From a virus, in UHGV virus genome UHGV-2125590: a stretch of DNA of 39,827 bases. One strand, given 5' to 3'. A program made the translations under genes and the position numbers. Positions 193-37,400 of this stretch are shown in pieces (position 1 is the first letter of the stretch; the number at the start of each line of letters is the position of its first letter). The notes beneath the pieces were generated by a model that saw only the letters and a list, made by a program, of their open reading frames with translations, did no database searches and had not been told where the DNA came from.

Positions 193-1443
193 GTGCTTAC
201 CGATACAAAATTAAAAAACCTCAAGCCGCAGGACAAACTGTACAAGGTCTCCGATCGTGACGGGCTGTATGTAGCTGTGCTTACGTCAGGCACGGTCTCG
301 TTTCGCTATGACTACCGTATCAACGGTCGCCGCGAAACACTGGTAATCGGGCAGTATGGGCGTGACGGTATCAGCCTGGCAGAAGCGCGAGAAGAACTGA
401 TTGCTGCAAAGAAGCTGCTTAAAGCAGGCCAGTCACCGGCTGCGGCTAAACGTGACGGTATCAAAAAGATTCGTGGTGCCGAGACGTTTGCGGTACATAC
501 CGACAGTTATATGAAACACGTCATCCTGGCTGACAGTACCCGCGCAATGAAACAGGCGGTGATCGACCGTGACATACTTCCGGTTCTTGGCAATAAAATG
601 ATGGCTGAAATTACCACATCGATGGTTCGTGATTTGTGTGACCGGATTGTCGAACGCGGTGGCCGGGCAACAGCAGTGCAGGCCAGGGAGATCATCAGCA
701 GCGTATACCGTCACGCCAATGACCGTGGTCATGGTTTGTTTAATCCTGCGGCTGACATAAAACCTTCGTCTATCGCCATATTTAAACCACGAGAGCGAAC
801 ACTGACACCAGAAGAAATTGGCCTGTTCTTCCGCACGCTGGATGCCATTGGTGCTATGGGCACTATGAAAATGGCTTTAAAACTGGTGCTTATCACTATG
901 GTTCGTAAGGGCGAATTCACCAATGCAACGTGGGATGAAATAGATTTTAAAAAATGGACATGGACAATTCCTCCAGACCGCATGAAGGGAAGCCGGGCGC
1001 ACGTTATTTACCTGCCTAAACAGGCACAGGATATATTGGTCGGGTTGCAGATGTGCGCTGGTGGAAGTGAATATCTGGTTCCTGGTCGTTACAATTTCCG
1101 GAAGCCATTATCTAATGCCGCGCTGAACTCTCTGATCGACAGAACGGTGAAAATAATAAATGAAGATGGTGAGCATATTCAGGACTTCACTGTACATGAT
1201 ATGCGCCGTACAGCCAGTACGTTGTTGCATGAGGCTGGTTATCCTTCAGACTGGATTGAAAAGGCTCTGGCACATGAGCAGAAAGGTGTGCGCGCCGTAT
1301 ATAACAAAGCGGAATACGCCAGACAGCGCGCCTACATGTTGCAGCAGTGGGCCGATATGATTGATTCATGGATTGACGGGGAGCATACGGATCTGATTCC
1401 GTTCTCCCCGTCGAAGTTTGAGAAGTGGATGGCGGGGGAATAA
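193..1443 (+). CDS. int: tyrosine recombinase / phage integrase, P4/CP4-57-like with N-terminal arm-binding domain
   Basis: 416 aa; GTG start at 193 after in-frame stop; N-terminus LTDTKLKNLKP...DGLY typical of P4-family integrases; C-terminal HDMRRT...Y catalytic region. Confidence 0.9.
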   Translation: MLTDTKLKNLKPQDKLYKVSDRDGLYVAVLTSGTVSFRYDYRINGRRETLVIGQYGRDGISLAEAREELIAAKKLLKAGQSPAAAKRDGIKKIRGAETFAVHTDSYMKHVILADSTRAMKQAVIDRDILPVLGNKMMAEITTSMVRDLCDRIVERGGRATAVQAREIISSVYRHANDRGHGLFNPAADIKPSSIAIFKPRERTLTPEEIGLFFRTLDAIGAMGTMKMALKLVLITMVRKGEFTNATWDEIDFKKWTWTIPPDRMKGSRAHVIYLPKQAQDILVGLQMCAGGSEYLVPGRYNFRKPLSNAALNSLIDRTVKIINEDGEHIQDFTVHDMRRTASTLLHEAGYPSDWIEKALAHEQKGVRAVYNKAEYARQRAYMLQQWADMIDSWIDGEHTDLIPFSPSKFEKWMAGE

Positions 1444-5388: not shown

Positions 5389-5465
5389 TTACCGTTGAGG
5401 TAATAATTATGCTTATTTGGTTTGGTGTCAATAGATATGAGTTAAAAAAATTACCCGTAAGGTAA
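5389..5465. promoter_or_regulatory. two copies of the 15-bp palindrome TTACC-N5-GGTAA in the leftward-operon promoter region (OL-like)
   Basis: Perfect sites at 5389-5403 and 5451-5465 between the repressor gene end and the leftward operon. Confidence 0.5.
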
Positions 5466-6162: not shown

Positions 6163-6225
6163 TTACCCAACAGGTAAATGCACCTCATAGGTAACTATCC
6201 TTGATTTTTGTTACCTTATGGGTGA
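6163..6225. promoter_or_regulatory. tripartite operator-like cluster (OR-like) between the divergent repressor and Cro-like genes
   Basis: Perfect TTACC-CAACA-GGTAA at 6163-6177; imperfect copies at 6180-6194 (GCACC...GGTAA) and 6211-6225 (TTACC...GGTGA). Confidence 0.55.
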
Positions 6226-6547: not shown

Positions 6548-6562
6548 GTACCTCAAAGGTAA
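6548..6562. promoter_or_regulatory. imperfect palindrome copy (GTACC-TCAAA-GGTAA)
   Basis: One mismatch in left arm; between Cro-like gene and next gene. Confidence 0.35.
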
Positions 6563-6640
6563 CAAAAAACCAAATCTGGTTGATCAAATTTTCCAATTGT
6601 GCAAAATAGCCAATATCAATAACAAAAAGGGGCGGAAAAA

Positions 6641-14433: not shown

Positions 14434-14510
14434 TGGCGTGGCATGCAGGATTCGAACCTGCGACCAACCGCTTAGAAGGCGGTTGCTCTGTCCAACTGAG
14501 CTAATGCCAC
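14434..14510 (-). tRNA. tRNA-Arg (anticodon UCU)
   Basis: 77-nt cloverleaf derived by hand: acceptor GTGGCAT/ATGCCAC, D-arm GCTC/GAGC, anticodon stem ACCGC/GCGGT with loop CT-TCT-AA, T-arm GCAGG-TTCGAAT-CCTGC, encoded CCA. Confidence 0.85.
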
Positions 14511-31079: not shown

Positions 31080-31106
31080 AGGCCGCTTTCGCGGCCTTGT
31101 TCTTTT
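31080..31106 (+). terminator. rho-independent terminator ending the structural operon
   Basis: AGGCCGC-TTTC-GCGGCCT followed by TGTTCTTTT. Confidence 0.5.
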
Positions 31107-31266
31107 AACGAATGCCACCGCCGCCCGGGCGGGAATCCGCAGAACGCCCACCGCAGCGGGAGCCGTCAGCGGCAGTATCGCTGTCGTGCTGACAACGACC
31201 GGCAAAGGCCTGAGTTGAAGCTACCAGAGACAACAAAACGAACAGTGCAGCAAATGCTTTTTTCAT
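31105..31266 (-). CDS. small secreted peptide (signal peptide plus about 31-aa Cys-containing mature part)
   Basis: MKKAFAALFVLLSLVASTQAFA then GRCQHDSDTAADGSRCGGRSADSRPGGGGIR; ATG 31266; no lipobox. Confidence 0.35.
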   Translation of the reverse strand: MKKAFAALFVLLSLVASTQAFAGRCQHDSDTAADGSRCGGRSADSRPGGGGIR

Positions 31267-31336
31267 TGTGAAATTTCCATCTATAAGCCACCTCAATGTG
31301 GCGTCAATGAGTGTAGCACTGACTTTTGTTTCGTCC

Positions 31337-31360
31337 ACAAAAAAGCCCGCGCTGCGGGCT
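31337..31360 (-). terminator. terminator after the 210-aa moron gene
   Basis: GCCCGC-GCTG-CGGGC with T-run on the minus strand. Confidence 0.45.
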
Positions 31361-31364
31361 TCTA

Positions 31365-31997
31365 TTAATGCAGTTTATCTTTGCTTATAACCAGTAGTCT
31401 GTGGGTATGCACATCTTTATCACTGCCCCAACAGAAATCAGCCCACTGGCTATAGAAATCATCCCATGATGTCATGAAGCTAAGAGGTCTATCTTCTTCA
31501 GAGCCATCTGAAACGTATACATTATATCCCGGGGTGTTTATAGCCCAAGAAATCATTCTTTCCCAGAATCTTCTCCCATCGATTGTTTGTTGCTCATCAG
31601 ATACAACGATCGCATATTGCTCTAGGAAGAACTGAAAAAAAATCTGAGGCAAACCATGAACAGCACGGTCATGAATAACATTAGGCGTACGCCATACCAT
31701 GATCTGCGTACATGTTCTTTTGGCTTCGACGATATCTTCCCGAAAGATTAACTTAACCGCATACACCGTTTCTGGAGTATCGCTGGTAGTAATCATTCTG
31801 TAATGATCGCCATTACAAGATTTTACAAGGCGATAACCATAAGGTGTTGTGAATCCCGGAAGAACGAAATCAACCACACCTTTCGCTAAGTAGCTTTCGG
31901 TGTGACTAGTGTTCTTCTCAGACATGTTCAGTTTTCTATCGAAATCTGCTTCTGGGATAATGTATGGCATCGCTTTTCTTGTTGTATTTGTTCTCAT
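31365..31997 (-). CDS. hypothetical 210-aa moron protein
   Basis: ATG 31997 with GGGAGGA RBS; own promoter region carrying the palindromic motif and own terminator; no family recognised. Confidence 0.55.
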   Translation of the reverse strand: MRTNTTRKAMPYIIPEADFDRKLNMSEKNTSHTESYLAKGVVDFVLPGFTTPYGYRLVKSCNGDHYRMITTSDTPETVYAVKLIFREDIVEAKRTCTQIMVWRTPNVIHDRAVHGLPQIFFQFFLEQYAIVVSDEQQTIDGRRFWERMISWAINTPGYNVYVSDGSEEDRPLSFMTSWDDFYSQWADFCWGSDKDVHTHRLLVISKDKLH

Positions 31998-32056
31998 TTC
32001 GTCCTCCCATGTTTGGCTACAGGACGCGTTTTGAAGGGAAGATTAAAAATGCTTTC

Positions 32057-32071
32057 TTACCCTTGAGGTAA
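32057..32071. promoter_or_regulatory. perfect TTACC-N5-GGTAA palindrome upstream of the 210-aa moron gene
   Basis: TTACC-CTTGA-GGTAAT. Confidence 0.5.
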
Positions 32072-32141
32072 TAGTACGCTATTCACCCCCAGTCTGCAAT
32101 CGTACAGAATTATTTAAAGGCACATCCCTGTGCCGCCGCCG

Positions 32142-32834
32142 TCAGAAGAACCCTGCTTTGTCGTTGATGTACTCCGCGTGAGTCTGGATATCACGCAGGC
32201 ATTTGCTCACACCGACGATGTAGCAGAACATGGTGGTCAGCTCCGCTGCAGCGCCCGATACATCATGCCCGTCTTCCTGTAACTGGTTCAGCAAATTCAT
32301 CAGCAGTGAGTTCTCCGTCAGGCCGAGAACACCAGACGGCGAATGAATCAGGCTGCGGTAGCCGGGCTTCAGCGGGGCACTGTAGGTTTTGTTCTCTATC
32401 TTCATCGCCTGCATTACTGCTGACGCCGTGGCGTTGGCTACCTGGTCGGCAACCATCTTTATGCGTTCTTCCTGCGGGAGCGAGTTTTTAATGTAACTTC
32501 CTGTGCGGCGGATCTGAGGAAGAACCTCACCTGTAACCCATTCAAGAAATCTGAATGCTCTCGTTCCCTCTGTCATTGCCTCTTTGCAACGCAGAATAAG
32601 GATGTAGAGACCTGATTCTGAAACGATGGATAGTTCTTGTATTCCACCAGGGGTCTGTATTGAATACAGCCCCTTTTTGTTCCAGCCTTTTTTATCAAGT
32701 TTTCTCGCTTGTGTAACATCAATATTCAAAGCATTGCACACATCTTTGGTGACAAACCAAGGTTCTCCGTCAATCATGAACATACGGATCTGGCAGGATG
32801 ACTCAAAGGAAAAGATGGAAGGTTTGGTATTCAT
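32142..32834 (-). CDS. Bro-N domain protein (antirepressor-like)
   Basis: ATG 32834 (AGGTGA RBS); N-terminal IRMFMIDGEPWFVTKDVCNALNI...GLYILI...LPQIRRTG is the Bro-N signature. Confidence 0.7.
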   Translation of the reverse strand: MNTKPSIFSFESSCQIRMFMIDGEPWFVTKDVCNALNIDVTQARKLDKKGWNKKGLYSIQTPGGIQELSIVSESGLYILILRCKEAMTEGTRAFRFLEWVTGEVLPQIRRTGSYIKNSLPQEERIKMVADQVANATASAVMQAMKIENKTYSAPLKPGYRSLIHSPSGVLGLTENSLLMNLLNQLQEDGHDVSGAAAELTTMFCYIVGVSKCLRDIQTHAEYINDKAGFF

Positions 32835-33101
32835 GGCGATCACCTTTGTAGTTAGGTTAATCACCACCGCTGAGACCAATCAGATGGTGGTGAACTGTGC
32901 AGAGTTGGTCTTACCGGCTACAAAGGAACCCGGCGCACCTTTCGGTGCCCCCACACAGCCCACCATAGAATAGGTGCGCTTTACACATAAAAAAACCGCT
33001 TATGCGGCATATGTGCCTCTGTAGTAATCCGGGAGACCAATCCCGGCACTGGATTTTGCCAGTGCCCGATTACTATGGCACAAGAGGAGTGCGATGTAAA
33101 T

Positions 33102-33209
33102 TTACCTCAAAGGTAATGATAAACGCGAAGAAATATTAAAATCAACCGTATTTGGTTGATTGGGTTTAACGCTTGATCACCTGAAAGCAAGATATTACCT
33201 TTAAGGTAA
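33102..33209. promoter_or_regulatory. two perfect TTACC-N5-GGTAA palindromes in the divergent promoter region
   Basis: 33102-33116 and 33195-33209, between the Bro-N gene (minus) and the 242-aa gene (plus). Confidence 0.5.
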
Positions 33210-33229
33210 TGTTATTGTGAGGAAAAGAA

Positions 33230-33958
33230 ATGGAAGTTTTCTGGATAGTTGTTGGTGTGGTTGCGGTGATTATTTACGTTATCAACCAGAACAAGACTAA
33301 GATCTCTGATCGTACGGTCGTTAATCATAACAAAACGATAAAGACCGAAGATGGGGAGATAACGATTAATCGTACACAGGTGATAGAACACACCTCTACT
33401 CAGTTTCAAAAAACTGGAGGTAATGCGCCTAATATTTCCGCACCTCCTGCTTATGATAGTGCGGTAATCCAGACATATTATAAACAGCAGGAGTTAGCAA
33501 AAGAGAGGCAACTGATTCAGCCAAAGCCGTTTACAGCTGAGCTTCCACCTGGAGTGTCAACGCGTCCGGCATATCATGGAAGATTCCCTGGTGGTGACAT
33601 ATCGTCTCAGTCATCTAAAAAAGCACCTCAGGCAGTATCAGAGCCAGCAAGAATACCTTCTGTATCGCCGCCAAAAGAAGAATCAGCTAACAGAGTTTCA
33701 AGTGGTAGCAAGCAGTGCTTGCGATGCAGAATAAACCTTCCATATGAAAAATTCAGGAAATCGTCAAAAAATCCAGATGGATTGACTAAGTGGTGTGCAA
33801 GGTGTCTCGATGGCCCAAAGAATACACGCCATATGAAGTGGTGCCCAATTTGTAATGTCCGCAGAAAACGAACCAGCTTTTACCCTAATAATCAAAATGC
33901 GGACGGCTTAATGGCATGGTGCAAAACGTGCTGGGATGAGCACAAAGCGAAACGATAG
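33230..33958 (+). CDS. membrane-anchored protein with tandem C-terminal zinc-ribbon-like repeats
   Basis: N-terminal TM helix FWIVVGVVAVIIYVI; two repeats of C-x2-C...DGL-x2-WC-x2-C; GAGGAAAA RBS. Confidence 0.55.
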   Translation: MEVFWIVVGVVAVIIYVINQNKTKISDRTVVNHNKTIKTEDGEITINRTQVIEHTSTQFQKTGGNAPNISAPPAYDSAVIQTYYKQQELAKERQLIQPKPFTAELPPGVSTRPAYHGRFPGGDISSQSSKKAPQAVSEPARIPSVSPPKEESANRVSSGSKQCLRCRINLPYEKFRKSSKNPDGLTKWCARCLDGPKNTRHMKWCPICNVRRKRTSFYPNNQNADGLMAWCKTCWDEHKAKR

Positions 33959-33981
33959 GCCGCTCTTGCGGCCTTTAAATT
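33958..33981. terminator. hairpin terminator between convergent moron genes
   Basis: GGCCGC-TCTT-GCGGCC followed by TTTAAATTT. Confidence 0.4.
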
Positions 33982-34238
33982 TACCGGGTTTGTTTTCGTA
34001 ATTGTTCGGCACAATAGTCGAGATGTGTTTGCAGATCCCGCATAGACATCTGTGAGCTGGTGACGTAGTTAATCAGTGCAGTCAGTTCGGCAAGTGGGCC
34101 ATCGACATTAAATCCATCCTTATCGAGATCCCGGAGTAATTTCATCAAGTGCGATCCCTCCACCAGTGACCTGACGCCTCCCGGCGTGTGAATCCTTTCG
34201 GTAAATCCGTCTTCCAGTGGATAGTGATACTGCTGCAT
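33981..34238 (-). CDS. small protein homologous to the C-terminal domain of the Bro-N protein
   Basis: 85 aa from ATG 34238 (GGAG RBS); aligns by eye to the last ~70 aa of the Bro-N protein (H.P.GV..L.E.S.LM.LL..L..DG..V.G..AELT...NYV......RD.QTH). Confidence 0.45.
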   Translation of the reverse strand: MQQYHYPLEDGFTERIHTPGGVRSLVEGSHLMKLLRDLDKDGFNVDGPLAELTALINYVTSSQMSMRDLQTHLDYCAEQLRKQTR

Positions 34239-34314
34239 CTTATCTTCTCCATGCAATAACTGTATATTTATACAGTAACAAATAATTTGTTTGCTATCCA
34301 GCACGTTTTGCAAA

Positions 34315-34329
34315 TTACCCGAAAGGTAA
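34315..34329. promoter_or_regulatory. perfect TTACC-N5-GGTAA palindrome between the small minus-strand gene and the tailspike gene
   Basis: ATTACC-CGAAA-GGTAAT; TATGTGGTT at 34361-34369. Confidence 0.5.
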
Positions 34330-34433
34330 TATCTATTCGTATTTACAGTCTTTCTATCCATATGTGGTTTTCCAGGTAATAGAATAACCAGATATGCGGC
34401 GCAACGGGTGCTGCGACTATCTGGAGATTTAAC

Positions 34434-37400
34434 ATGACGGTCTCAACCGAAGTTGACCACAACGAATACACCGGTAACGGCGTTACGACATCGTTTCCGT
34501 ATACTTTTCGAATTTTCAGAAAATCAGACCTGGTTGTTCAGGTGTCTGACCTGAACGGAAACGTAACAGAATTGGTTCTGGATACCGGTTATACGGTAAC
34601 TGGGGCGGGCACTTATAGTGGCGGTTCTGTGGTTCTTCCGTCTCCGCTTGCTACTGGATGGCGAATTACGATAGATCGTGTGCTTGATGTGGTGCAGGAG
34701 ACTGATCTTCGTAATCAGGGAAAATTTTTCCCCGAGGTGCATGAAGATGCCTTTGACTATCTGACGATGCTGATCCAGCAATGTTTTGGATGGTTCAGAC
34801 GTGCATTGATGAAACCATCTTTGCTTGCAAAATATTACGATGCAAAGCAAAACAAAATTTCTAACCTTGCAGATCCATCATTTGAGCAGGACGCTGTAAA
34901 TAATCGCTCAATGCGTAATTATGTCGATGCTGCAATCGCCGGGGTTGTTGGTGGTTTTGGTTGGTTTATTCAGTATGGTTCTGGGGCTGTGTACCGAACG
35001 TTCCAGGATAAAATGCGTGATGCTATTAGCCCCAAAGATTTTGGAGCTGTTGGTGATGGTATAAATGACGATTCCACTGCAATAAGCGCGTGCCTTGAAG
35101 CCTCATCTCCAGGTTATAAAATTGACGGATTAGGGCTTACTTTTAAAGTATCAACTCTTCCGGATGTCAGTCGATTTAAAAATGCTCGTTTTTTATTTGA
35201 GAGAATACCGGGCCAGCCTCTTTTTTATGCTTCTGAAGATTTTATCCAGGGAGAGTTATTTAAAATTACAGATACACCGTGGTACAACGCCTGGACGCAG
35301 GATAAAACGTTTGTATATGACAATGTCATCTATGCGCCTTTTATGGCTGGAGACCGCCATGGTGTAAATAACCTCCATGTTGCATGGGTTCGCTCAGGAG
35401 ATGACGGGAAGACCTGGACAACGCCGGAATGGCTTACAGATTTACATGAAAACTATCCCACAGTTAACTATCACTGCATGAGTATGGGGGTTGTCAGAAA
35501 TCGCCTTTTTGCTGTAATTGAGACGCGGACCGTGAGCGGAAATAAACTGCAGGTTGCAGAGTTGTGGGATCGCCCAATGAGTCGCAGCCTTCGCGTTTAT
35601 GGTGGTATAACGAAAGCAGCAAATCAGCAAGTCGCTTATATTCGCATTACTGATCACGGATTATTTGCTGGTGATTTTGTCAACTTCTCAAACTCTGGTG
35701 TTACAGGTGTTACCGGGAATATGACGGTGACTACTGTTATTGATAAAAATACTTTTACAGTTACGACGCAAAATACCCAGGATGTGGATCAGAATAACGA
35801 GGGTAGATACTGGAGTTTTGGTACATCATTTCACTCGTCACCATGGAGAAAAACCAGTCTTGGAACTATTCCTTCTTTTGTTGACGGAAGCACTCCTGTT
35901 ACTGAGATTCACAGTTTTGCGACGATTAGCGATAACAGTTTTGCTGTTGGCTACCATAATGGTGATATTGGTCCACGCGAGCTTGGGATACTCTATTTCT
36001 CTGATGCTTTCGGTTCTCCTGGTAGCTTTGTTCGCAGACGCATACCTGCAGAATATGAGGCGAATGCATCTGAGCCATGTGTAAAATATTATGATGGCAT
36101 TCTGTATCTGACGACCAGGGGGACATTAAGTACTCAACCCGGTAGTTCATTGCACAGAAGCTCTGATTTAGGTACATCATGGAATTCTCTTCGCTTCCCA
36201 AATAATGTTCATCACTCAAACCTTCCTTTTGCCAAAGTTGGCGATGAGCTGATTATTTTTGGCAGTGAGCGCGCATTTGGTGAGTGGGAAGGAGGAGAAC
36301 CTGATAACCGTTATGCAGGAAATTATCCAAGAACATTTATGACCAGAGTTAACGTCAATGAGTGGAGTCTGGATAATGTAGAGTGGGTTAATGTTACTGA
36401 TCAGATTTATCAGGGCGGAATAGTTAACTCTGCGGTTGGTGTTGGTTCAGTTTGTATCAAAGACAACTGGCTGTACTACATTTTCGGTGGGGAAGACTTT
36501 CTAAACCCATGGAGCATAGGGGATAACAACAGAAAATATCCTTATGTTCACGATGGTCACCCGGCTGATTTGTATTGTTTCAGGGTGAAAATTAAACAGG
36601 AAGAATTTGTTTCAAGGGATTTTGTCTACGGAGCCACTCCTAACAGAACGCTTCCTACTTTTATGTCGACGTCAGGCGTGAGGACGGTTCCTGTACCCGT
36701 TGATTTCACAGATGATGTTGCCGTCCAGTCACTGACTGTCCATGCAGGTACATCAGGACAAGTTCGCGCGGAAGTCAAACTTGAGGGTAATTACGCCATT
36801 ATTGCGAAGAAAGTACCGTCTGATGATGTTACCGCTCAGAGATTAATCGTTAGCGGAGGTGAAACAACGTCTTCAGCAGATGGTGCAATGATAACGTTGC
36901 ATGGTTCCGGAAGCAGTACTCCACGTCGCGCGGTATATAACGCACTCGAACATCTTTTTGAGAACGGAGATGTTAAACCTTATCTTGATAATGTAAATGC
37001 TCTTGGTGGTCCGGGAAACAGGTTCTCGACAGTTTATCTTGGCTCCAATCCTGTGGTTACCAGTGACGGAACATTAAAGACAGAGCCGGTCTCTCCTGAC
37101 GAAACATTGCTGGATGCCTGGGGTGACGTCAGGTATATCGCTTATAAATGGCTGAACGCTGTCGCTATAAAGGGGGAAGAAGGGGCGAGGATACATCATG
37201 GTGTAATCGCGCAGCAACTTCGTGATGTTCTTATTTCTCACGGACTCATGGAAGAAGAAAGCACAACATGCCGCTATGCCTTTCTTTGCTATGACGATTA
37301 TCCCGCAGTATATGATGACGTCATTACTGGCCAAAGGGAAATGCCGCTGACTGATAATGACGGGAGCATCATTGTTGATGAGGATGATAATCCAGTGATG

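Follow-up and report, generated by a model that had tools for sequence, protein, structure and literature searches.

The window analyzed here is a stretch of 39,827 nucleotides of a viral genome (UHGV-2125590), an epsilon15/phiV10-like (Uetakevirus) Escherichia coli prophage, and our subject is the island of five genes between its ejection genes and its tailspike gene. These genes encode proteins of 53, 210, 230, 242 and 85 amino acids (aa), the third with a Bro-N domain ( Table 1 ). We conclude that the island is probably the anti-repressor control region of the prophage, expanded by plug-in cassettes: it appears to hold two anti-repressor genes, one LexA-controlled and already known, the other gated by two small RNAs, interspersed with three cargo genes. 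Its counterpart in function and position is immI, the second immunity (anti-repressor) locus of phages P22 and P1. The original prediction, made from the letters of the DNA, had described a moron island, five independently promoted genes of which none could be assigned to a known system. The latter statement fails for two of the five genes, and for the long intergenic region as well: profile, PDB and Rfam searches place these parts in the Rep/Ant/LexA switch and in C4/IsrK control.

Compared with phiV10, TL-2011b, ZX5 and other E. coli Uetakeviruses, the island is 92-98% identical, but in pieces only. Of 5,426 complete E. coli genomes, 569 have parts of it, among them those of K1, O157 and other pathogenic lineages, and 18 have the full arrangement (at least 80% cover). 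The tailspike gene that bounds it (34434-37556) encodes a K1 endosialidase together with its chaperone domain (Pfam).

The 85-aa protein matches chain E of PDB entry 5D50 (phmmer E 1.4e-46, residues 2-84 against 3-85, ∼87% identical). This entry is the Rep-Ant complex of the Salmonella Uetakevirus SPC32H, and its chain E is titled "Anti-repressor protein". Judged by this homology, the 85-aa protein is an SPC32H-type anti-repressor Ant; its binding to Rep, and the release of Rep from its operator, are predicted here. SPC32H annotates ant at the identical position, divergent from the tailspike gene, where it stands alone between the gene of a 46-aa membrane protein and the tailspike gene. Because ant is the sole occupant of this position in SPC32H, it belongs to the phage core and not to the cargo. 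The perfect LexA (SOS) box CTGTATATTTATACAG lies 22 bp upstream of its start codon. This box, which had been overlooked earlier, is aligned in SPC32H, phiV10 and TL-2011b despite diverged flanks, and is present in six more relatives as well. In SPC32H, LexA is reported to repress ant (Kim and Ryu, 2013).

The partner of Ant lies outside the island but in the same circuit. The product of open reading frame (ORF) 5523-6107 matches 5D50 chain A over residues 1-190 (E 3.5e-42); it is 99.5% identical to the repressors of phiV10 and ZX5, but only ∼43% to SPC32H Rep. The Rep tetramer binds palindromic DNA, and tetrameric Ant takes it apart (PMC9638917).

The other protein related to Ant is the Bro-N protein. 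Its Bro-N domain, already recognized in the original prediction, scored 51.2 bits against a Pfam threshold of 25.6 (PF02498, E 2e-13), and the whole protein matches phrog_130, 'anti-repressor Ant' (E 3.5e-51). Its residues 149-225 match residues 3-79 of the 86 of 5D50 chain E (E 9e-14), and the 85-aa protein itself aligns, as had been noticed before, to its C-terminus (residues 149-222, 43% identity, E 1e-20). The two had been seen as a regulatory or decoy pair; the regulatory direction was right, but the small protein is the anti-repressor Ant and not a decoy. The Bro-N protein is 81% identical to ORF4 of ZX5, with the C-terminal ∼125 aa identical; the N-domain (32549-32842) is allelic between phages and the C-domain is conserved. 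Over-expressed ZX5 ORF4 cut prophage counts ∼1000-fold, and the authors name it an anti-repressor (PMC9782041). On this evidence we propose the Bro-N protein as a second anti-repressor, whose C-domain would bind Rep. Beyond ant and the Bro-N C-terminus, no further copy of the Ant domain was found in the window.

A third copy of the Ant-like C-terminal domain is present in TL-2011b, where the 3' end of an 'anti-repressor Ant' gene encodes it (2735-2987 of locus L001). This copy is 95% identical at the DNA level to the Bro-N C-terminus and adjoins an Arc-like repressor gene, a neighborhood that we take to resemble P22 immI. We also observed a perfect 15-nt inverted repeat, TGCAAAACGTGCTGG, which may be due to chance: one arm (33920-33934) codes for the zinc-ribbon motif WCKTCW in the 3' end of the 242-aa gene, and the other (34298-34312) lies in the ant promoter region, between palindrome and LexA box. 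The latter arm also occurs in phiV10, which is without the 242-aa gene.

The 350 bp between the divergent Bro-N and 242-aa genes had been taken for a promoter region; they hold two RNA genes (Rfam), those of the small RNA IsrK and of the C4 antisense RNA. The a' loop of C4 is complementary to two sites, a1 in IsrK and a2 over the Bro-N Shine-Dalgarno sequence, and its b' segment is complementary to b1 and b2 in the same two partners. The calculated energy of a'/b' pairing is −21.8 kcal/mol with the leader, a value reached by 2 of 1000 shuffles, and −24.2 kcal/mol with IsrK, reached by none of 1000. The order IsrK then C4 also precedes the anti-repressor genes of phiV10, ZX5 and Gifsy-1; in SPC32H neither RNA was found.

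The strongest evidence for the RNA switch is the three-way compensatory covariation of a'/a1/a2 and b'/b1/b2 in an alignment of four phage leaders. The b'/b1/b2 triplet reads AGACCAA/UUGGUCU/UUGGUCU here and ACGCCAA/UUGGCGU/UUGGCGU in phiV10, ZX5 and Gifsy-1. The a'/a1/a2 triplet is CCUUUGUAG/CUACAGAGG/CUACAAAGG here and CCUUUUAG/CUAAAAGG/CUAAAAGG in phiV10 and ZX5, and Gifsy-1 has a third type. Cognate duplexes between C4 and the ribosome-binding site reach −27.4 to −29.8 kcal/mol, compared with −17 to −25.8 kcal/mol for non-cognate ones.

Experiments on related leaders give these RNAs a plausible role. The C4 RNA of P1 represses Ant synthesis (PMC8546580). In Gifsy-1, translation of the anti-repressor gene anrP rises >100-fold when IsrK is provided in trans, the isrK locus contributes to prophage induction, and the processed RNA STnc1160 downstream is complementary to IsrK (PMC4825925). 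The putative isrK promoter of the window aligns with that of Gifsy-1 (TTGACA-N17-TATATT), which was shown by experiment (PMC4825925). In the window, too, IsrK is placed upstream of a proposed anti-repressor gene; read-through and trans activation were shown for Gifsy-1 only (PMC4825925). Because a coupled leader ORF is missing, the Gifsy-1 coupling model is not transferable unchanged: the 28-aa ORF inside C4 (32880-32966) stops 46 nt before the Bro-N start codon. We considered AnrP as a homologue of the Bro-N protein and rejected it; the proteins are unrelated and share the RNA leader alone. Because the same leader precedes the unrelated AnrP, it is a portable cassette.

Of the palindrome TTACC-N5-GGTAA the window has 15 sites against 0.68 expected. 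Apart from the four in the island, sites lie at 6163 and 6211, in the gap between rep and a divergent 76-aa ORF taken as cro, and at 5389 and 5451, at the leftward early promoter; further ones precede the replication, packaging, structural and integrase units. SPC32H has 18 sites against 0.5 expected, with three in its rep-cro gap, three at its leftward promoter and one upstream of ant. The island site at 32057 is kept in five relative loci (L001, L004, L005, L006 and L011), and the site upstream of ant is kept in SPC32H though the flanks have diverged. In the 210-aa cassette the operator follows the putative −10, and at the two anti-repressor promoters its end precedes the −35 by 1 nt (GGTAAaTTTACA for isrK, GGTAAtTTGCAA for ant). 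From these positions we infer that the palindrome is the operator of Rep, possibly also of Cro, and predict its binding. A palindrome had been claimed for the promoter region of each island gene; this holds for four of them, and none is present between 31267 and 31364, the upstream region of the 53-aa gene.

Some palindromes are paired at exactly 62 bp, centre to centre: 5389/5451 and 8450/8512 in the window, and 35972/36034 in SPC32H (L009). Such pairs bracket the −35/−10 elements, with one site upstream of the −35 and the other directly after the −10, an arrangement that would suit a Rep tetramer forming a DNA loop. In the island, the sites at 33102 and 33195 are separated by 93 bp (62 + 31). 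We noted a second shared motif, AACCAAAT-NN-GGTTGAT, at 6568-6584 and 33141-33157, with three matches against 0.11 expected, two of which overlap on opposite strands at 33141-33157. The first site follows the palindrome at 6548, and the second falls between the divergent isrK and 242-aa genes. Within the motif, TTGAT(C/T) looks like a −35 hexamer, and the island copy forms an inverted repeat with 8-bp arms, AATCAACC-N6-GGTTGATT.

The palindrome also marks the cassette boundaries. Relative to SPC32H, which has one intergenic gap here, ∼2.9 kb have been added, and the insert is flanked by two 89%-identical copies of a terminator hairpin (31080-31098 and 33957-33975), which suggests recombination at the terminator as the route of cassette entry. 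Pairwise comparison places mosaic breakpoints at palindromes and terminators. TL-2011b has a YafO module in place of 31361-32056: homology ends at 31360 and resumes exactly at the palindrome at 32057. phiV10 and ZX5 are without 33117-33980, the 242-aa cassette, and the break falls inside the palindrome 33102-33116. Other genomes have a DUF4760 gene or an "Ant" variant in the corresponding slots.

These elements can be assembled into a working model, each step of which is conditional. In the lysogen, tetrameric Rep would occupy operators at nearly every promoter, four of them in the island, and LexA would occupy the SOS box of ant. DNA damage would remove LexA, and the Ant then made would bind Rep and strip it from the DNA, as in the SPC32H mechanism. 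The Bro-N protein would be a second anti-repressor, transcribed from the isrK promoter through the leader. Most leader transcripts would end at the IsrK terminator, and those that read through would carry C4, whose a' and b' could pair with a2 and b2 and so cover the Bro-N ribosome-binding site. The a1 and b1 duplicates in IsrK could titrate C4 or open the leader, turning Bro-N translation on. Two inputs, SOS and the RNA switch, would thus converge on one repressor, with a second immunity specificity added by the alleles of the RNA pairing.

In its full form this model makes four statements at once, and we put forward their conjunction as a possibility that falls somewhat short of probable. 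Two anti-repressors would share a Rep-binding domain, one released by LexA and the other gated by IsrK and C4, in a two-key circuit. The pairing alleles would give a second immunity specificity, like that of P1/P7, within one repressor immunity group. Operators and terminators would delimit the cassettes, so that cargo (GNAT-like, zinc-finger, YafO, DUF4760) is wired automatically into the Rep regulon. Finally, with the operator abutting the −35, Rep might poise or activate the anti-repressor promoters and not merely repress them.

Several points weigh against this model. It is from site position only that Rep is matched to TTACC-N5-GGTAA, and at ant and isrK the operator abuts the −35, centred near −44, where activation would be a compatible reading too. 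The promoters come from comparison: a generic promoter scan returned 6 sites against 7.6 expected by chance and, because it did no better than chance, we propose promoters only where comparison supports them. The ZX5 ORF4 experiment was an over-expression of a glutathione S-transferase (GST) fusion, and the Ant-like domain of the Bro-N protein, at only 43% identity to Ant, might be a tetramerisation module and nothing more. Over IsrK, the c4-a1b1 model RF03163 scored only 39.9 bits, below its gathering score of 46.7, and the ORF list contains no icd- or orf45-like coupled ORF in the Bro-N leader.

The last of these points, the missing coupled upstream ORF (icd in P1, orf45 in Gifsy-1) of the described mechanisms, would suit a view in which IsrK and C4 are inactive remnants carried along with the Bro-N gene, and Rep alone controls that gene. 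We regard this as very improbable: both RNAs are full-length and well above their gathering scores, the IsrK terminator is intact, and compensatory changes keep the a and b triplets matched in three specificity types. Such changes are not expected of relics, so the RNA elements are unlikely to be relics. The doubt about the Ant-like domain leads to another alternative, that the Bro-N protein does not act on its own Rep. The Ant-like domain would then only oligomerise, as SPC32H Ant, itself a tetramer, could suggest, and the variable Bro-N domain would be the active part, perhaps as a DNA-binding domain or through trans action on the repressors of other resident prophages, a behavior known from the Gifsy anti-repressors. 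It is the N-domain (32549-32842) that is the exchangeable, allelic part, the C-domain being conserved; the same IsrK-C4 leader drives the unrelated AnrP in Gifsy-1; and trans-acting anti-repressors are documented in Salmonella (PMC3121763). We nevertheless think this quite unlikely, since the identical C-domain occurs in phages whose Rep is 99.5% identical, since over-expression of ZX5 ORF4 moved ZX5 itself away from lysogeny, and since the homology spans the whole Ant chain (residues 3-79 of 86) and not just a helix suited to oligomerisation.

The island could also be what its first description made of it, five independently expressed genes of conversion, exclusion or defence, with the 85-aa protein as a decoy or regulator of the Bro-N protein. 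The cassettes are indeed separately bounded by hairpins and promoters, and the content of the slots varies among prophages, a YafO toxin and a DUF4760 protein included. The gene of the secreted 53-aa peptide has no operator, and the membrane-anchored 242-aa protein is at the position that sieA has in P22. However, the 85-aa protein is Ant, a protein solved in complex with Rep, and ant is the sole gene at this position in SPC32H and so is core. No family in the PADLOC library of defence systems was matched by any of the six island proteins queried. Furthermore, four of the five genes carry the operator of the rep-cro and early promoters, which argues against expression in the lysogen, and we judge this alternative unlikely. 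A moron is a gene expressed independently in the lysogen; the label is therefore limited to the 53-aa gene, which alone is without the operator, and the other four lie behind the palindrome found at the rep-cro and leftward early promoters. We thus favor the reading of the region as an anti-repressor control region with added cassettes.

In that reading, three of the five proteins are cargo. All five island proteins match a PHROG family end to end (E 2e-40 to 8e-150), and none matched the NCBIfam profile library. The 53-aa pre-peptide has, as originally proposed, a Sec-type signal (MKK-hydrophobic-AFA|G, read from the sequence by eye), followed by a 31-aa mature peptide with two Cys. It matches phrog_14503 (E 2e-40), labelled 'transmembrane anchored protein' in the sources, and its family comprises 57 clusters, of which all those with a named organism are Enterobacterales. 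A promoter-like TTGACG-N16-TATAGA was read from the sequence upstream. Because it has no operator, this gene may be expressed from the prophage, and it is the one candidate for such expression.

For the 210-aa protein we tentatively predict a fold like that of acyl-CoA N-acyltransferases (GNAT). Its conserved loop, Q-T-x-D-G-R-R-F-W, differs from the GNAT acetyl-CoA loop, Q/R-x-x-G-x-G/A. Neither the 53-aa nor the 210-aa protein had a Pfam match, and ten distant relatives of the latter had no Pfam or NCBIfam match over the homologous region either; its family, which has no Pfam model, reached 901 clusters at 50% identity in a profile search. Against the PDB sequences the 210-aa protein had no match, and the 242-aa protein produced nothing above noise. 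One distant 210-aa homologue (P0224) is fused to a region with a SAD/SRA match at E 0.002; SAD/SRA domains bind modified cytosine. We did not rely on this match, which is weak, sub-threshold and confined to one fusion.

The 242-aa protein matches phrog_6762 (E 8e-150) and, below threshold, Pfam Stc1 (E 5e-4). Its two C-x2-C...W-C-x2-C units, noticed before, are invariant across 29 homologues, and the N-terminal helix is also predicted: in the AlphaFold2 model, residues 3-20 form a helix with a predicted local distance difference test (pLDDT) score of ∼90, and the C-terminus exceeds 90. The model predicts a membrane helix at the N-terminus, then a conserved beta hairpin and a disordered linker, and at the C-terminus a tandem zinc ribbon similar to that of Stc1. 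Because positive residues follow the helix, the zinc fingers would be in the cytoplasm. A fold search with the model gave a single marginal match, the Stc1 tandem zinc finger 2LUY (E 2.7e-3), and we drew no function from it. The 242-aa gene was not found in phiV10, ZX5 or SPC32H. To judge from their operators, the 210-aa and 242-aa genes would be active only once repression is lifted or early in infection, and not in the quiescent lysogen.

As to the layout, the five predicted ORFs are present, and in three related E. coli prophages PGAP annotates all five with matching lengths (162, 633, 693-711, 729 and 258 nt). Position 34361, once given as the right limit of the island, is where a longer ORF around the 85-aa gene ends, and not the limit of the gene itself. 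A terminator scan recovered the predicted terminator of the structural operon. The idea that each gene has its own terminator stands insofar as a GC-rich hairpin follows every gene; at the 53-aa gene and ant, no U-tract is present on the same strand.

Table 1. Features of the anti-repressor island and its circuit (window coordinates).
Feature	Position	Strand	Remarks
53-aa gene	31105-31266	-	PGAP coding sequence WP_000708858
210-aa gene	31365-31997	-	
Bro-N gene, 230 aa	32142-32834	-	
242-aa gene	33230-33958	+	
ant, 85 aa	33981-34238	-	
rep, 194 aa	5523-6107	-	outside island but in circuit; matches 5D50_A
Terminator hairpin	31080-31097		closes structural/ejection operon; left copy of flanking direct repeat
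Intrinsic terminator of 210-aa gene	31340-31364	-	GC stem and U6; fold −17.2 kcal/mol
Hairpin common to converging 242-aa and ant genes	33957-33974		right copy of flanking repeat
IsrK terminator	32995-33008	-	terminator scan
Palindrome TTACCCTTGAGGTAA	32057-32071		promoter of 210-aa cassette; mosaic breakpoint; putative Rep operator
Palindrome TTACCTCAAAGGTAA	33102-33116		ends 1 nt before isrK −35; mosaic breakpoint with phiV10 and ZX5
Palindrome TTACCTTTAAGGTAA	33195-33209		20 nt upstream of 242-aa start codon; 93 bp from previous palindrome
Palindrome TTACCCGAAAGGTAA	34315-34329		upstream of ant, in gap between divergent ant and tailspike genes
LexA (SOS) box CTGTATATTTATACAG	34260-34275		perfect; 22 bp upstream of ant start codon
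C4 antisense RNA	32883-32970	-	RF01695, 78.6 bits (gathering 45), E 7e-14, model 1-87
IsrK small RNA	32989-33065	-	RF01394, 74.7 bits (gathering 50), model 1-77
C4 a' loop CCUUUGUAG	within 32883-32970		
a2 target CUACAAAGG	32843-32851	-	overlaps Bro-N Shine-Dalgarno (start codon 32834)
a1 target CUACAGAGG	33016-33024		in IsrK
C4 b' segment AGACCAA	within 32883-32970		
b2 target UUGGUC	32874-32879	-	
b1 target UUGGUC	33035-33040		in IsrK loop
Putative isrK promoter TTTACA-N17-CATAGT	33072-33100	-	promoter scan; inferred start ∼33065

Elsewhere in the window, a perfect heptanucleotide repeat (TCAAGAC × 10.3, or AAGACTC; 37713-37784) lies just after the endosialidase gene in a stretch of 32-36% GC. 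It is followed by a 111-aa hexapeptide-transferase ORF (38095-38430), apparently out of frame; repeat and ORF resemble a phase-variable gene of the neuO type, for a polysialic acid O-acetyltransferase. A tRNA gene (14437-14510, minus strand, Rfam 73.3 bits) lies between packaging and head genes, and SPC32H has a tRNA-Arg at the corresponding position. ORF 193-1443 (plus strand) is a tyrosine integrase (Pfam), and at the opposite end of the window a 385-aa ORF (38670-39827, minus strand) looks integrase-like from its translation; if it is an integrase, a prophage junction or more than one integrative element would lie within the window.

Databases mark most of this locus as "hypothetical", and it can now be read as a regulatory circuit. 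If the two-input reading is true, such prophages would be inducible both by SOS agents and by SOS-independent signals acting through IsrK; the signals that act through IsrK in Salmonella include stationary phase and low Mg2+ (PMC4825925). Induction is relevant because these prophages carry tailspike and surface-modification genes, here the K1 endosialidase and a neuO-like acetyltransferase. The matched a'/b' alleles, in addition, are natural variants on which RNA-based immunity specificity could be tested in phages other than P1/P7.

It is instructive to compare the region with the systems that it resembles. The closest relative of its core is the switch of SPC32H (structures in PDB entries 5D50 and 5D4Z), which has an Ant ∼87% identical, a Rep homologue, and a conserved LexA box and palindrome at an ant gene that is likewise divergent from the tailspike gene and directly follows the ejection genes and the 46-aa membrane-protein gene. 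In contrast to SPC32H, where Rep is ∼43% identical and the locus has no Bro-N gene, IsrK, C4 or cargo cassettes, the present phage adds a second Ant-domain protein. The position and leader RNAs of this second gene, and Rep, are shared with ZX5 (vB_EcoP_ZX5, ORF4) and phiV10 (PhiV10p23), and with ZX5 also the C-terminal 125 residues; these phages differ in the allele of the Bro-N N-domain and in the C4 pairing type, are without the 242-aa cassette, and have other cargo or none in the 210-aa slot.

The RNA switch has its counterparts in immI of P1/P7 (c4, icd, ant1/2) and in isrK-orf45-anrP of Gifsy-1. As in P1/P7, an anti-repressor leader contains a C4 RNA of the processed type, two loops of which pair with an upstream a1/b1 and a downstream a2/b2 at the ribosome-binding site; an operator of the main repressor, putative here, lies at the promoter, and allele-specific pairing suggests a second immunity specificity. 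Unlike in P1/P7, there is no icd-like ORF and a2 lies on the anti-repressor's own Shine-Dalgarno sequence, the upstream target pair is inside a terminated small RNA, IsrK, and the anti-repressor, a protein unrelated to P1 Ant, combines Bro-N with an SPC32H-Ant-like domain. Gifsy-1 offers the same succession of isrK promoter (with hexamers that align), IsrK and terminator, C4-type RNA (STnc1160) and anti-repressor gene. However, its orf45 is translationally coupled to anrP, whereas the equivalent ORF here stops early; it has no Uetakevirus palindrome beside the −35, its a' specificity differs, and AnrP is not a Bro-N homologue.

In P22, immI (sieA, mnt, arc, ant and the sar RNA) lies between the ejection and tailspike genes. 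The two loci agree in map position, in having an antisense RNA and in their membrane-protein cargo, and TL-2011b carries Arc and Ant genes at the locus. Their proteins and RNAs differ, however, and this window has neither Arc nor Mnt. Taken together, these comparisons show that the SPC32H-type Ant with its LexA box, the Ant-domain Bro-N protein behind IsrK/C4 and the Rep operators are parts already known, and nothing here is categorically new; sequenced phages, phiV10 and ZX5 for example, already carry the same genes. It is the combination that is worth a modest note: two Ant-domain proteins with different inputs, RNA pairing types that differ among phages sharing the same Rep, and cassettes bounded by operators.

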